DNA of 64,000 bases. Source: Dehalococcoidia bacterium. GTDB taxonomy: Bacteria > Chloroflexota > Dehalococcoidia > UBA2979. A program made the translations under genes and the position numbers. Of this stretch, positions 20,939 through 53,601 are shown one piece after another. Below the pieces are notes generated by a model that worked only from the letters and a program-made list of their open reading frames with translations, was not told where the DNA came from and searched no databases. Position 1 is the first letter of the stretch; each line of letters opens with the position of its first letter. The stretch lies in assembly GCA_965262725.1 (NCBI GenBank), contig OZ253555.1, forward strand, positions 608,001 through 672,000. The letters run 5' to 3'.

Positions 20939-21712
20939 TCAATCACCTCCCGTCTGCGCCTCGAGCAGGGCGCGGTGCGGCGAGAGCCGCTGGCGGTAGC
21001 TATCGCCCTCGATCACGATCTGGTAGCTGGCGTTCGCGAGCCGGTCGAGGGCGCTGTTGCCGAGGATCGGGTCGTCGAAGAGACCCAGCCATTCCTCCAC
21101 GGCGCGGTTCGAGGTGATCACGAAGCTCGAGCTGCGGTGGCGCCCGATGACCAGCTCGTAGAGGTCGATGGACTGCTGCGCGCTGAGGCGATGGAGCCCG
21201 AGGTCGTCGAGGATGAGCAGGTCGGGCGCGAGGAAGCTTCGGAAGACCTTCTCGGCCGAGTGGTCGACGCGGGCCTGCGCCATCTCGCGGAAGTAGTGGT
21301 CGGCCGGGGCGAAGCGCACGGTGCGTCCGGAGCGGACGGCTGAGTAGCCGAGCGCCTGGGCTAAGAAGCTCTTGCCGACGCCGACGGGGCCGACGAGCAG
21401 GACGTGCTCGCGGCGGTCGAGGAAGTGCAGCGAGAAGGCGGCGTCGAGCAGGCGGCGGTCGAGCCGGATGGCGGCCGCCCAGTCGAAGTCCTCGAGGCGG
21501 CAGAGCTGCTCGAAGCCGGCCTGGCGCAGGCGCAGCTCCAACCGCCCGTGGTCGCGGCGGCTCACCTCGTCGACGAGCAGGATCTGCAGGAAGTCCGCGT
21601 AGTCGAGGTGGTCGCGCCGCGCGAGGGCGATGCGCTCGGGCAACGTGTCGAGCATACGGCCGAGCTTGAGGCGCTTGAGCAGCGGACGGAGGTCTGAGGT
21701 GGTGGCGGTCAT
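20939..21712 (-). CDS. istB: IS21 helper ATPase
   Basis: GPVGVGKS, LLILDDLG, ITSN, LDRL. Confidence 0.95.
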   Translation of the reverse strand: MTATTSDLRPLLKRLKLGRMLDTLPERIALARRDHLDYADFLQILLVDEVSRRDHGRLELRLRQAGFEQLCRLEDFDWAAAIRLDRRLLDAAFSLHFLDRREHVLLVGPVGVGKSFLAQALGYSAVRSGRTVRFAPADHYFREMAQARVDHSAEKVFRSFLAPDLLILDDLGLHRLSAQQSIDLYELVIGRHRSSSFVITSNRAVEEWLGLFDDPILGNSALDRLANASYQIVIEGDSYRQRLSPHRALLEAQTGGD

Positions 21713-23289
21713 CGTGGTGCTCCTGTCGGGGTCTGCGTGCGGGACTGTGCGAAGACGGAGCCCGAGTGGGCGAAGCGCCCCGGAGGCGGCGGCAGCTCGG
21801 GCTGGTCTGGGGTGCTCTCCTGGTCGAGGGCCTCGACGAGGATGCGCTCGAGGCGGCGCACGTCGATGAGGTCGACCTCGAGCGCGCGGCGGCAGGCGGC
21901 GTCGAGGCGGTCCGGGGAGTAGCGCTCGGCGAGGCGCAGCAGCTTGTGGCCCTGCCGCAGCTTCGCCCAGGGCAGGGAGCCCTCGAAGAGACGCTCGGCG
22001 TAGGCGCCCACGGCCTCCCCCAGCTCGGCGGCGCGGCGCTGTATCCAGTCGGGCGCCCGCCTGGTGTAGGGGGTGAGCTCGGCCGGGTAGTCGTTCGGGT
22101 CGGTGGCGCGGCCGCCCCGGCGCTGGCGCGGGTGGACCTTGATGAGCTGACCGCGGTGGTAGATGCGCACCAGCTTCGAGCCGAGCTGCACCTCGACCTT
22201 CTGGCGGGGCGGGCAGGCCGTGGACGGCACCGAGTACAGCGCGTACTGGCAGGCGATGTGGTGGTCGGGATGGACCGTGGCGGTCCGCCAGTCGGGGACC
22301 TCGTAGGGCTCGCCGTCCCAGGGAGCGAGGAGAGGGAGCTCCTCCTCCCGGAAGACCTCGAGCGGCCGGCGGCGGGTCGTGCCGTGGATGCGCTGTCCCG
22401 CCACCTCCAGGCACCAGCTGCGGGCGGCGGAGCGCAGGTCGACGACGTCCCGGAAGTCGCCGCCCTTGAAGAGGCGCTCGCGCACGTAGGGGATGCTGCG
22501 CTCGACGCGCGGCTTGTCGCGGGGATGACGCACGCGCGCGGGGTCGGTGATGAAGCCTCTGTGGCGGGCGTACTCGAGGAAGCCCCGCGTGAAGCGCGGG
22601 TGCAGCGCGTCGGCCCCGGCGACGGCGGCCGGGAAGTTATCGATGACGAGGTAGCGGGGCACGCCCCCGAAGAAGGCCCAGGCCTCCTCCAGGCCCTCGA
22701 TCACAGCGTCCAGCGTCTGGCTGGTGGTGGGCCACACAAAGCAGTGGCGTGAGTAGCGCCAGACGACGACCAGCGCCCACACCGCGCGCCGGCGGCCGCT
22801 CTCGGGGTCCCGGATGAAGCCGAGGCGGCCGAAGTCCATCTCCGCCACCTCGCCCGGCGGCCCGTCGTCCATGCGCACGGTCGACGGCAGCCGGTGGCGC
22901 CAGCCGCGGCGCCGGATGAAACGCCGCAGCGTGGTGTAGGAGACCTCGCAGCCTCGTCCGGCGAGGAGCTCCTGGATGCGCGTCAGTTGCAGGCGGTCGG
23001 TCTCAAGCCAGCGCTCGATCTGCTCCGCCCAGGGCGAGAGCAGCTCTTCGCTCGGCGCCTCGACCTGCCGCGGGCCGGAGAGGCTCAGCGTCGCCAGCGC
23101 GGCGAGCTGCTCCTCACTCGGCTCGGGACCGTCAGGTGTGAGGCCGGCCGCTTCGGCCGCGTCGATGTAGCGGCGGACCGTCTGACGCGACAACCCCATC
23201 CCGCTGGCGATGCGGCGCTGGCTGAGCCCCGCCTGCCAGCGACGAATGATCTCCTGAATCTCCACCCCGTGTACCTCCCGGTAGGCCAT
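21709..23289 (-). CDS. istA: IS21 transposase
   Basis: N-terminal HTH, PGEVAEMDFG, IDN, PRDKPRVE, YSVP. Confidence 0.95.
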   Translation of the reverse strand: MAYREVHGVEIQEIIRRWQAGLSQRRIASGMGLSRQTVRRYIDAAEAAGLTPDGPEPSEEQLAALATLSLSGPRQVEAPSEELLSPWAEQIERWLETDRLQLTRIQELLAGRGCEVSYTTLRRFIRRRGWRHRLPSTVRMDDGPPGEVAEMDFGRLGFIRDPESGRRRAVWALVVVWRYSRHCFVWPTTSQTLDAVIEGLEEAWAFFGGVPRYLVIDNFPAAVAGADALHPRFTRGFLEYARHRGFITDPARVRHPRDKPRVERSIPYVRERLFKGGDFRDVVDLRSAARSWCLEVAGQRIHGTTRRRPLEVFREEELPLLAPWDGEPYEVPDWRTATVHPDHHIACQYALYSVPSTACPPRQKVEVQLGSKLVRIYHRGQLIKVHPRQRRGGRATDPNDYPAELTPYTRRAPDWIQRRAAELGEAVGAYAERLFEGSLPWAKLRQGHKLLRLAERYSPDRLDAACRRALEVDLIDVRRLERILVEALDQESTPDQPELPPPPGRFAHSGSVFAQSRTQTPTGAPR

Positions 23290-50553: not shown

Positions 50554-51102
50554 ATGACTACGGAAGGCATCACGACTTGGGAGAACGCCCGCCGGCGAAG
50601 GTTGCTGAGCGACTTCCGGGACAATGTTGAACGGTACTTCGGTGCAGCCACTGACGAGGACGACGGCGCCGTTCGTCGTGAGCTTAATCGAGCCTTACCC
50701 GAAGTCCGGAGCGTCGTTGCTACCGCGGGGATAGTACCAATGCTCCGCTGGAATCCTCCGAGACTGATGGGCGGTCCCGCGATGGATGTCCACCTCCTCC
50801 GCGATCTGTTCCATCTCAAGCAGTTGTGGATCAGTCACACTCTTGTGTTGGACGAGCTAGACCGCTCTCTGGGCGTCTACGAAGCCGATAGACGTGGAGC
50901 ACTCGCACGGACCTGGAACCCCTTTTGGTGGCTCCAGCGAGGGCTGAGTTGGCTTGGTCGGATTCCCTTCCGCGTACTGCGTGCCGTTGGCATCAACACC
51001 ACTCGCCTTGAAGGCACCGGGGTTGGGTCGGTCATTGGACTCGTCACCGCTTTGGCCGCTCTGGCGGCGGCCCTTCTCACTATCGGTAATGAGATCCGTT
51101 GA
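50554..51102 (+). CDS. Hypothetical protein with C-terminal transmembrane helix
   Basis: 182 aa ending VIGLVTALAALAAALLTIG. Confidence 0.6.
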   Translation: MTTEGITTWENARRRRLLSDFRDNVERYFGAATDEDDGAVRRELNRALPEVRSVVATAGIVPMLRWNPPRLMGGPAMDVHLLRDLFHLKQLWISHTLVLDELDRSLGVYEADRRGALARTWNPFWWLQRGLSWLGRIPFRVLRAVGINTTRLEGTGVGSVIGLVTALAALAAALLTIGNEIR

Positions 51103-51115
51103 GCTCCAAGCCGGC

Positions 51116-51214
51116 CTAGCCAAACAGCACCGCCGCGACCTTCTCGCTCGCTTCGCGCTGCATGTCGGGCAGCACGTGGGAGTAGAGGTCGCTTGTTGTG
51201 CTCATCTGCGTGTG
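51116..51214 (-). pseudogene. Tyrosine integrase C-terminal remnant
   Basis: HTQMSTTSDLYSHVLPDMQREASEKVAAVLFG*; shorter second copy near 50180-50205. Confidence 0.8.
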
Positions 51215-51408
51215 GGGCTCGGGCTACGCGCCACCACCTACGGTTCGGACCGCGCCAGCCCCTTACCCAACCCACCCTCGACAACTCCTTTCCCTCCGCT
51301 GCGGGGAAGTCAGACTCCACCGAGCGTAGGCACTGGGCGGTCGGGGGTGGTGTCCCCATGTTCTTTGTCAAGGGCCAGCGCCACTGATCCGGGATGGCCG
51401 GCGCAGCG

Positions 51409-52626
51409 TCAGGTAGCCACCGACCCGTGACGAGGAGCCTCCTCGGCGCGGTACGGTTCGCGCGAGCGCAGCATGGCCAGGATGACGTCGCAGCGACGAC
51501 GCGCGAGGCAGATGACGGCTGCGGTGTGTTTCTTCCCCTCGGCCCGCTTGCGGTCGTAGAACGCCCGCGAGACGGGGTCGCGCAGCGAGGCGAAGGCGGA
51601 GAGGTACATCGCGTTCTTGAGCCGGTGATTCCCGCGGCGGCTCCGCGTCTGGCCCCGGATGCTGCTGCCGGATTGGCGGGTGACCGGGGCAGGGCCGGCG
51701 TAGCTGGCCAGCCTCGATCCGTTCGCGAAGCGAGAGATGTCACCGATCTCGGCGAGCATCCGCGCCCCCGTCGTCGGCCCGACCCCCGGCAGGGAGCCGA
51801 GGATGAGGCCGAAAGGGTGGGCCTCGAAGAGCTCCCCGATCTCCGCGCCGAGCCGCTCCCGCCGCTGCTGCGTGCGATCCAGCTCGGTCGCGACCTCGGC
51901 GATCACCCGACCCATCGCGACCGAGCCGGGTACGACCACGGTCTGGGCGCCGAGGGCCCCGGTGACGGCCTCGGTGAGCGCCTTCGCGAGGCGCGGCGAG
52001 CGCTTCCGGAGCGTCCGCGCGATGCGGCCGCGACCCGCCGTGGCCAGCGCCTGCGGTGTCGGGTAGCGGGCGAGCAGGTCCCGTGCCCCCGCATTGTGGA
52101 GCCTGGGGCCCAGTACGCGCTCCAGGGCCGGGGAGAGACCGGTGAGGGCGTCGCGGAGCCGGTTCGTGAGCCGCGTGGCATCGGCGGCGAGGTCGATGTC
52201 GTAGCCGTCGAGAACGCGCAGCTGCTCCAGGAGTTCGTCGTTGCCGGCGTCGAGCCAGTGCACCTGGTGGCGCCGGGTGCGGCCGGTGTCGGCCAGCACG
52301 AACGCGTCGCGACGGTCGGTCTTGGACTCACCCGGGTAGAGGTCGGCGGCACGGCGCATGACCAGCCCCGGCACGTACGCCACCGGCACGCCGCGGCGGG
52401 CGGCGACGGCGAGCACGAGCCGGGCCAGCGAGCCGGGCTGGTCGACGACCAGTGCCGCGGAGCCGAAGGACTCCGCGCGAGCGAGGAGCGCCTCGATGTC
52501 GGCCTCGTCGTTCGCGACGGCGACGGCGAACAGCGGCGAGCCTGCCGCGTCCAGCACATCGGCGAAGTGCTCGGTCTTGCCGATGTCGAGGCCGATCCAC
52601 ACGGTGGTTTCGTCGGGCGTACCCAC
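51409..52626 (-). CDS. IS110 recombinase/transposase
   Basis: IGLDIGK, KTDRRDA, SLPGVG, YAG.AP....SG, GNHRLK. Confidence 0.95.
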   Translation of the reverse strand: MGTPDETTVWIGLDIGKTEHFADVLDAAGSPLFAVAVANDEADIEALLARAESFGSAALVVDQPGSLARLVLAVAARRGVPVAYVPGLVMRRAADLYPGESKTDRRDAFVLADTGRTRRHQVHWLDAGNDELLEQLRVLDGYDIDLAADATRLTNRLRDALTGLSPALERVLGPRLHNAGARDLLARYPTPQALATAGRGRIARTLRKRSPRLAKALTEAVTGALGAQTVVVPGSVAMGRVIAEVATELDRTQQRRERLGAEIGELFEAHPFGLILGSLPGVGPTTGARMLAEIGDISRFANGSRLASYAGPAPVTRQSGSSIRGQTRSRRGNHRLKNAMYLSAFASLRDPVSRAFYDRKRAEGKKHTAAVICLARRRCDVILAMLRSREPYRAEEAPRHGSVAT

Positions 52627-52639
52627 TGCAACTCCTTCC

Positions 52640-52850
52640 GGGGTTTCTCCCTCATTCCAGCAGGAAGGCCGCAGGCGCGCTCGCCGTCATCCACCTTACA
52701 AATCAGCGATTGGCTCGCATGTCCCCATCAGAGGTTCATGCGCCGAACAGTGCCGGTGGCAACACCACCTGGGCCGTCCGTTGCGGCAGGGCCACTTGAG
52801 CCATGCCGGCACTGCTGGGCTTCCCGGGCTCAGAGGTTACTGAGCTCGTT
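52640..52850 (-). ncRNA. Predicted IS110 bridge RNA (boundaries approximate)
   Basis: Non-coding left end contains four segments matching the target and donor junctions in bridge-RNA order. Confidence 0.8.
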
Positions 52851-53601
52851 TGAAGAAGGTAAGGGGCCACTTCAGAGCATCACTCCCAACCCCATGTCCA
52901 TACAGTGCGAGTGGCCGACCTCGGTGGCCGTGGGGTTCTCGTCGCGGGGGCGGGCGGGTATGCCGACGATCGGCCGACGCGCGAGTACATCCGCGAGTCG
53001 CGGGTGCGCCATCACGCCTCGATGCCCCGGACGTGGCAATCGACCCCAGAGATACGATGCCTGTCCCGGAGCAGGAGATGAATCGGGCCTCGGCTTGAGT
53101 CGGCGAGCAGATAGCGGCGTCCGAGTAGACACGGCATCGCGATGTGCCGAGCAAGACAATCGCATGGCGCGAGTGGCCGAGCGCGAGGTTCGACCCGTGC
53201 ATGAAGAAAAAGATCATATGATCCGCTATCAATTCCCGCTCACGATCCGCTCGATCGTTCCCACGGCGCATCTGTGGAGCGCCGTCGGGTACCTACTCAA
53301 GCGGCGTCGGCGCTCGCGGGCACTCGCGACTCGGGAGCTTGAGCGAGGAATGGGACGCGCCGTCAGGCTGCCCTCCAGTGTCGACGTGGATCTCGTAGGG
53401 GCGAAGGAAGGCGCGCTTCACGAACGTGAGGTGGCGCTCGCTGCTGCCGGCCAGGTGAGAGCCCGGCGTCGCCGTCGCGCCACGCAGGCGCGCGGGGCCG
53501 CGGTCCCGGGAAGCACGCGGGCGCCAACGGCAGCCGCCCGAGCAACCGCGGCCGGCGCGGGCAGAGGCACCGCGAGGGGATGCTGCCCGAGTTCGATGCT
53601 C

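Follow-up and report, generated by a model that had tools for sequence, protein, structure and literature searches.

An IS110-family element on the minus strand

The window, the whole stretch of 64,000 nucleotides analysed here, belongs to a Dehalococcoidia genome that is assembled as one contig of 3.67 Mb with 70.6% G+C. We investigated an IS110-family element on its minus strand at 52864-51349, which consists of 1,514 bp plus one extra CC. The whole element, with both copies of its CC core, occupies 51349-52864, as delimited by the junctions, the genomic copies and the empty sites. Read in the direction of the element (all of its features lie on the minus strand), the left core copy at 52863-52864 is followed by a non-coding left end of 236 nt (52627-52862), the recombinase gene (51409-52626; GTG start, 405 aa), a right end of 58 nt (51351-51408) terminating in the left donor ATGGGGACA, and the right core copy at 51349-51350. 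Both core copies were placed by the junction reading, the copies and the empty sites. The left end is predicted to encode a bridge RNA, the fold of which extends to about 52663; the match of the covariance model described below falls in this end only. No long terminal inverted repeats were found, in that none of the 25 longest inverted pairs, out of 65, joins both termini.

The two ends carry the halves of a putative promoter. The right end contains the -35-like hexamer TTGACA (51366-51371), and the left end contains the -10-like hexamer TACCTT (52856-52861), which would serve a promoter assembled on circularisation. TTGACA or TTGACG stands 14-15 nt before the terminus in 24 of the 24 right ends found among the close relatives, and TTAC.TT stands at the start of all 19 aligned left ends. 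When the right and left ends are joined via one CC, the -35/-10 pair is spaced by 17-18 bp. For the window copy we counted 18 bp from the sequence across the one-core circle junction, the spacing that the first-pass annotation had given.

The recombinase exceeds the curated cut-offs of both IS110 domains, PF01548 (E 2.9e-38) and PF02371 (E 1.2e-22), and its residues D14, D62, D104, D107 and S319 do not vary among 15 relatives. For the C-terminal domain, the alignment to IS621 (8wt6) has E 3.4e-17 with the protein and 8.2e-24 with the profile. In this alignment, S319 coincides with the serine of the IS621 ESGSS motif, and the KTDxxDA motif also aligns with IS621. In the profile alignment, D14, D62, D104 and D107 stand opposite the D-E-D-D residues of IS621, with Asp instead of Glu as the second acid, and an invariant D-Q-P-(G/S/A/N) motif stands opposite E-A-T-G of IS621, in a stretch that is weakly aligned (i-E 6.3).

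The crossover dinucleotide is CC

How is the core of the element defined? The junctions, read on the minus strand, are AAGTGGCC-CC-TTACC on the left, with CC at 52864-52863, and ATGGGGACA-CC-ACC on the right, with CC at 51350-51349, just as the first-pass annotation had read them. The element's own genome contains 15 matches to it. Six are full copies, of which L001 (the window copy), L002 and L003 have 98-100% identity and L004-L006 have 80-82%; the other nine are partial. A search with the left end alone added one short left-end remnant (L132). The full copies all start with CC-TTACC and end with ACA-CC, save one base in L005. The 405-aa frame is intact in L001 and L002, and the frames of L003, L005 and L006 are damaged.

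A genome search for AARTGGCCCCACCC with at most one mismatch returned 18 sites, versus 4 for the reversed control. The loci L016 and L017 are empty paralogous sites, in which AAGTGGCCCCACCC is uninterrupted; therefore, exactly two bases, CC, are ambiguous between insert and target, and the empty sites fix the crossover dinucleotide as CC. The CC core proposed in the first-pass annotation is thus real, at both junctions of the full copies. The other copies lie at TGGCC-CC-ACCC-type sites, not at the unrelated sites that would have spoken against that proposal. A CT core reached by shifting the boundaries was considered and ruled out, as the right junction contains no CT.

The CC core is a trait of the examined relatives, and not of the window copy alone. 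The CT core, which is the hallmark of the IS621-like orthologues, is absent, and CC is found in all relatives with junctions that were read, down to 54% protein identity. The closest relatives by recombinase protein come from Dehalococcoidia metagenome-assembled genomes. Among the actinomycete relatives at about 50% identity, the core is ambiguous, with C-run flanks and a left end of C-G-TTACC. A left-end search of the genomes of 40 relatives matched in 3 of the 40, and few further junctions were gained.

Several truncated or rearranged copies were observed in addition. Left-end remnants of 22 bp (C1:2555145-2555166), 51 bp (L014, C1:1948325-1948375) and 410 bp (L008, C1:1651232-1651639) are present in the genome. 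The flanks of the first two read GAAATGGCC-CC and CGTATGGCC-CC, respectively, and L014 has A where the empty paralogues carry T. In the genomes of relatives, the copies L037, L038, L052 and L046 have the first ~23 nt of the left end replaced. At least 1,285 bp of upstream sequence is common to copies that differ in their right flanks, and the IS110 element therefore appears to be carried there in a larger repeated unit.

The left end folds into two internal loops

We aligned 19 left ends, taken from the same genome and from relatives with protein identities as low as 54%, and derived their consensus with RNAalifold. The consensus fold consists of a 5′ hairpin, a long-range closing helix and two modules, each with an outer stem, an internal loop and a hairpin. 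In the window copy, the comparative fold places the 5′ stem-loop at 52829-52844, and the long-range helix that closes both loops pairs 52817-52824, as its 5′ strand, with 52663-52670. The putative target-binding module (52746-52816) has an outer stem of 52816-52800 with 52760-52746 and an inner hairpin at 52787-52773. The putative donor-binding module (52674-52744) has an outer stem of 52744-52739 with 52679-52674 and an inner hairpin at 52721-52704. The two internal loops that the first-pass annotation had called for are present, and its four guide segments lie within them, between the outer and inner stems.

The pairs of this fold are maintained by compensatory changes. We scored 40 named pairs, leaving out the guide-to-guide pairs. 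In the 19 left ends, 96.4% of the cells are paired and 12 of the 40 pairs are doubly changed; none of 500 shuffles attains any of the measures, and slid controls reach 33-53% paired. Among 59 more distant loci with about 50% protein identity, a covariance model built from the 19-sequence alignment gave a full-length match upstream of the gene in 58; it gave a single match in the window. In the 59-sequence alignment fitted to this model, 31 of the 40 pairs are doubly changed and 95.5% of the cells are paired, figures that lean towards the model because the alignment was fitted to it. The minimum-free-energy fold of the single sequence, which scored little better than shuffles (z -2.09) and paired the guides to each other, was set aside for the comparative folding.

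The guides follow the DNA that they would recognise

The four motifs named in the first-pass annotation are all in place: AAGTGGCCC at 52797-52789, GGTGG at 52769-52765, ATGGGGACA at 52728-52720 and GTAAGGTG at 52699-52692. They also obey the IS621 logic to which it appealed. In IS621, the partner of the left guides is the bottom strand, so that they read like the top strand, which in turn is the partner of the right guides (Durrant 2024, PMC11208160); the four segments here are likewise same-sense on the left and antisense on the right. The left target guide, AAGUGGCC-CU (52788-52797), has the same sense as the left flank, and its last U faces the bottom-strand G at core position 2. The right target guide (52763-52770) consists of AGGUGG followed by UG, which complements the donor CA to the left of the core and fits the handshake rule. 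The left donor guide, AUGGGGACA (52720-52728), has the same sense as the right end, and the right donor guide (52692-52699) consists of GUAAGG followed by UG, antisense to the circle-junction CA-CC-TTAC. Both right guides carry GG at the core; at the second core base, the CU ending of the left target guide would give a G.U wobble. As a separate observation, the Nocardia elements L057, L060, L062, L064, L065, L070 and L076 have G in the left donor guide versus A in the right end. This G would face the bottom-strand T as G.T, and a wobble therefore seems to be tolerated in these natural guides.

In order to estimate chance matches, the left end was shuffled 20,000 times. A 9-nt left-flank match arose in 88 shuffles and a 9-nt right-end match in 139, while a 5-nt right-target match arose in 18,712 and a 6-nt right-donor match in 5,170. 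The 5-nt and 6-nt matches alone carry no weight, because they are common in shuffles, and the two short guides are supported by comparison with relatives, not by the window sequence alone.

This comparison covered 24 elements with a right end found by pattern. In 22 of them, the right end repeats the 8-nt left donor guide exactly; L005 and L041 miss by one base each. The haplotypes of this guide, TG, TA, CG and CA, each occur with the corresponding right end. The right target guide types GGGUGG, GGGGGG and UGAAAGGG adjoin the flanks ACCC, CCCC and CTTTCA, respectively, and the guide fits the first two flank bases in 20 of the 24 elements (the misses being L002, L037, L052 and L041). The guide of the window copy, AGGUGG, is one base from the GGGUGG of the other copies. 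The right donor guide is GUAAGG where the left end is CC-TTAC, and GUAACG where it is C-G-TTAC, in the distant actinomycete relatives.

We scored positions 1-7 of the left target guide in the eight guide-bearing junctions of the subfamily of the window copy. The guide agrees with the flank at 7/7 positions in L001, L002, L003 and L034, at 6/7 in L035 and L036, at 5/7 in L039, and at 3/7 in the truncated copy L008. The variable base of this guide, considered below, agrees with the flank in 6 of the 8 junctions.

Could the target instead be chosen by the protein, or by a structure of the host element, with recognition of an IS21 terminal repeat and only incidental matches in the left end? All of the good targets share one motif, TGGCCCCACC, which is compatible with sequence-specific protein binding, and a preprint (10.64898/2026.03.19.712850) reports additional structure-based target fidelity in another IS110 element. 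However, the guides change together with the flanks and ends across subfamilies, in four segments and with the correct strand polarity. They lie in the loops of a covariation-supported fold, and all four matches occurred together in only 1 of the 20,000 shuffles. We consider a protein-chosen target very improbable.

The target is a terminal repeat of an IS21-family element

Next, we examined the DNA into which the element has inserted. Fourteen of the 18 genome sites read AATTGGCCCCACCC with identical flanks, all at the left tip of an IS21-family element of 2,627 bp. This element is present in 12 complete and 3 altered copies (for example L114, C1:245325-247951). The 15 copies are at least 99.9% identical, which points to a very recent burst. 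It encodes an IstA-like protein (PF22483, E 7e-18) and an IstB ATPase (PF01695, E 1e-60). Either end bears a pair of TGGCCCCAC repeats, equivalent to the L1/L2 and R1/R2 direct repeats that IstA requires (PMC10122671). The natural target of the IS110 element is the repeated TGGCCCCACC, which forms the L1/L2 repeats of IS21-family terminal inverted repeats.

The host site of the window copy is a short diverged relic of such an IS21-like left end. The left flank (52865-52888) belongs to its terminal repeat, of which the 26 bp at 52863-52888 match the tip of the multi-copy element at 92% identity; the right flank (51262-51348) continues the same relic over about 85 recognisable nt, with no istA behind it. 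Relatives in other genomes lie within the same IS21-type repeat, as seen in the left flanks of L034, L036 and L039 and in the right flank of L046. Among the literature matches listed, none describes IS110 targeting of IS21 terminal repeats.

Two further repeats may be mentioned here. The window contains a distant IS21-like istA/istB pair on the minus strand at 20981-22860, with 31-33% protein identity to the multi-copy element. A second repeat family, with 15 sites (for example at C1:1851558 and 2477770), reads CCAG(A/G)(A/G)ACACTGGCCCCGAATCTCC; its left half fits the C-type guide and its right half does not, and 15 of the 15 sites are empty.

A single guide base varies with the target

One guide base differs among the full copies, being G in L001 and A in L002 and L003, and the flanks differ likewise. 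In L034, from another genome, a guide C is paired with a flank C. The G is native to the diverged IS21-like variants L016 and L017. At one A site, Y2, the A is also native, as its empty paralogue Y1 (genome position 1513144) has the same base. The IS21-like host of the second A site and its siblings are 100% identical over 2,569 bp, but the host has A where 14 of the 14 unoccupied siblings have T. The IS21-like copies carry T at this position in both left-end repeats, bar the occupied A copy.

The two A-type copies have themselves been rearranged. L002 and L003 (C1:1438844-1440885 and C1:1513773-1518186) are inverted copies that differ by one base and one gap, and their flanks are exchanged. 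One IS21-like copy is split, with its first 60 bp at 1438844-1438903 and the remaining 2,569 bp at 1516341-1513773 in the opposite orientation. This arrangement indicates a 77-kb inversion by recombination between L002 and L003. For the odd A site, three explanations are possible: a conversion running into the shared flank, which the exchange of flanks between L002 and L003 through the inversion makes conceivable; the strict choice of a rare variant by the guide; or an A-to-T escape in the IS21-like lineage that expanded later.

The first of these could be generalised, in that the identity of guide and flank at the variable position might have arisen after insertion, by gene conversion into the shared flank, and not by guide-directed choice. 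L002 and L003 have demonstrably recombined, the split IS21-like copy has A where its otherwise identical siblings have T, and the flanks have GAA-N-TGGCCCC in common. Against this, the A of Y2 and the flank G of the window copy are native to their sites, and the C:C pair of L034 occurs in another genome, so that three matched pairs need no conversion. We regard conversion as unlikely as the general explanation.

The region of L002 and L003 also contains an 800-bp non-IS segment that is duplicated in inverted orientation (C1:1512818-1513620 versus 1517853-1518186 plus 1440416-1440885). One of its copies bears an IS110 insertion at GGGAAATGGCC-CC-CTCC, with a perfect left and a poor right half, and the other is empty; this insertion resembles the “half-match” insertions described in a 2026 preprint. 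The interpretation of site Y as an IS21-like right end was rejected, as site Y is the duplicated 800-bp non-IS segment, 630 bp beyond that end.

Proposed mechanism

We conclude, with a probability of roughly 0.87, that the element is a complete IS110-group insertion sequence working by an IS621-type bridge-RNA mechanism. This reading is carried by the anatomy, the covariation of the fold, the co-variation of the guides with the DNA, the CC core and the identity of the target. The structural tests of protein domains, termini, left end and RNA fold place the element in the IS110 group, with the catalytic tetrad and the circle-junction promoter as putative features, and it departs only from the CT-core feature of the IS621-like set.

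Excision and transcription: Excision would join the right end to the left end via one CC, and the joined ends would put TTGACA 18 bp upstream of TACCTT. The reconstituted promoter would drive a non-coding RNA of about 185-200 nt from the left end.

Folding and recombination: The RNA would fold into the 5′ hairpin and the two internal loops closed by the long-range helix. The recombinase, with its putative D14/D62/D104/D107 tetrad and S319, would exchange strands at the CC common to donor and target. Transcription, circle formation, catalysis and the present activity of the window copy are predictions from this arrangement. From the first-pass description of an intact programmable recombinase with a different core, the intact frame and the CC core stand, while “programmable”, like activity, belongs among these predictions.

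Several observations weigh against the bridge-RNA reading. In the window copy, a G-to-A change breaks one pair of the outer stem of the donor loop, and the right target guide has one mismatch to its own flank. In the 80% subfamily and the 54-72% relatives, the left target guide matches its flank poorly, for the most part at CCC-CC only, with 3-5 of 7 matches in either register for the 80% subfamily and the more distant relatives. In all 19 aligned left ends, the UG that follows the right donor guide, at the end of GTAAGGTG, pairs with the left side of the element's own donor and not with the target, at the positions equivalent to the IS621 handshake. A search of 51000-53200 against Rfam 15 with E up to 10 gave only three chance matches, to eukaryotic families, and no fitting family. 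The data, which are assembled contigs only, showed no RNA end, circle junction or excision product. The contigs are all broken at the repeat, and the lack of a circle or excision back-joint in them gives no support either way. The RNA-library contigs over the left end, 52550-52861 (X19) and 52559-52811 (X20) at 92-99% identity, are uninformative on transcription, ends and strand. Finally, perfect sites for the G guide (L016, L017) and the C guide (L025) are empty, which suggests that the resident copies are little active or blocked.

Is the window copy then a dead relic, a member of a bridge-RNA-guided family whose copies in this genome are immobile? The empty G and C sites are joined by Y1, an unoccupied site with a matching left half for the A guide, and in the IS21-like element that expanded recently, all 14 T-type L2 sites are unoccupied. 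The damaged frames of L003, L005 and L006 and the two defects of the window copy point the same way. On the other hand, L001 and L002 retain full 405-aa frames with all invariant catalytic residues, and the near-identity of L002 and L003, one base and one gap apart, implies recent copying. Moreover, each resident guide has one mismatch to the T-type sites, and this alone may explain their emptiness. We regard immobility of the resident copies as a real, but minority, possibility beside a working element.

Implications

The known mechanism is unchanged by these findings; a different core and an IS21 terminal-repeat target make the element a modest variant of a known system. The published work on bridge recombinases, in the accounts drawn on here, is bound to CT cores, and the other cores that have been tested or used are GT, AT and TT. 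We found no paper that combines “CC core” with “bridge RNA”, and the supplementary tables of Durrant 2024 may list such cores.

A wider interpretation, which we put forward tentatively and with more doubt than conviction, joins two proposals: a distinct CC-core lineage of bridge recombinases, and an arms race between IS110 and IS21 elements at single guide positions. The lineage may comprise the Dehalococcoidia and Acidimicrobiia relatives to 54% identity, and perhaps the ~50%-identical actinomycete elements with the ambiguous core. In it, the second core position may have been re-specified from T to C, with the invariant D-Q-P loop where IS621 reads that base. If true, C-ending cores would be opened to programmable recombination. 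Since bridge recombinases are under development as genome-writing tools, a natural CC-core group with a different motif in the core-reading loop would be a starting point for a wider addressable sequence space.

As for the arms race, the resident guides have G, A or C at target position 2, and the only IS21-like lineage with a recent expansion, to 15 copies, has T there in both repeats; this lineage differs from the one occupied sibling by exactly the guide-variable base. The sibling copies, one guide base apart at targets differing by the same base, constitute a natural experiment. The target is the transposase-binding repeat of an insertion sequence, and one mobile element would thus be policing or parasitising another.

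Comparison with known systems

The element closely resembles IS621 of E. coli (PMC11208160, PMC11208158). Both have a two-domain recombinase and a long left end, which in IS621 encodes, and in the window element would encode, an RNA with a 5′ hairpin, two internal loops that bind target and donor, and left same-sense and right antisense guides. Both have a 2-nt core at the two junctions, and a promoter split between the right and left ends, as predicted for the window element, is described for IS621 (Durrant 2024, PMC11208160). In both, the two bases after the right target guide complement donor positions 6-7.

The differences concern mainly the core and its reading. The core of IS621 is CT, and its second T is described as “almost invariant” in IS621 and related orthologues, with its reading assigned to the main chain at G63 (Hiraizumi 2024, PMC11208158); the core of the window element is CC. 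In place of the E-A-T-G of IS621, the window element has the invariant D-Q-P, with Asp as the second catalytic acid, as far as the weak alignment allows. Its left target guide still has U at core position 2, which would give the G.U wobble. The two bases after its right donor guide pair with its own donor, unlike in IS621, where own-donor pairing of the follow-on bases blocked strand exchange (Hiraizumi 2024, PMC11208158). The protein has 405 aa, versus 328 residues in the PDB chain of IS621, only its C-terminal domain aligns significantly, and the long-range helix closing both loops is a further feature unlike IS621.

The IS1111-group elements that target Tn3 ends are also insertion sequences with a DEDD recombinase, and their natural target is also a terminal repeat of another transposable element. 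However, they have the guide RNA in the right end, long subterminal inverted repeats, and Tn3-family ends as the target instead of IS21 L1/L2. In the window element, the right end is only 58 nt long, and no subterminal inverted repeat of 7-17 bp is found among the pairs listed. ISPpu9, ISPpu10 and other REP-targeting members, as they are described, share with it the aiming of an IS110-family element at a multi-copy genomic repeat. These members target REP or conserved intergenic sequences, whereas the window element targets the transposase-binding repeat of a mobile element.

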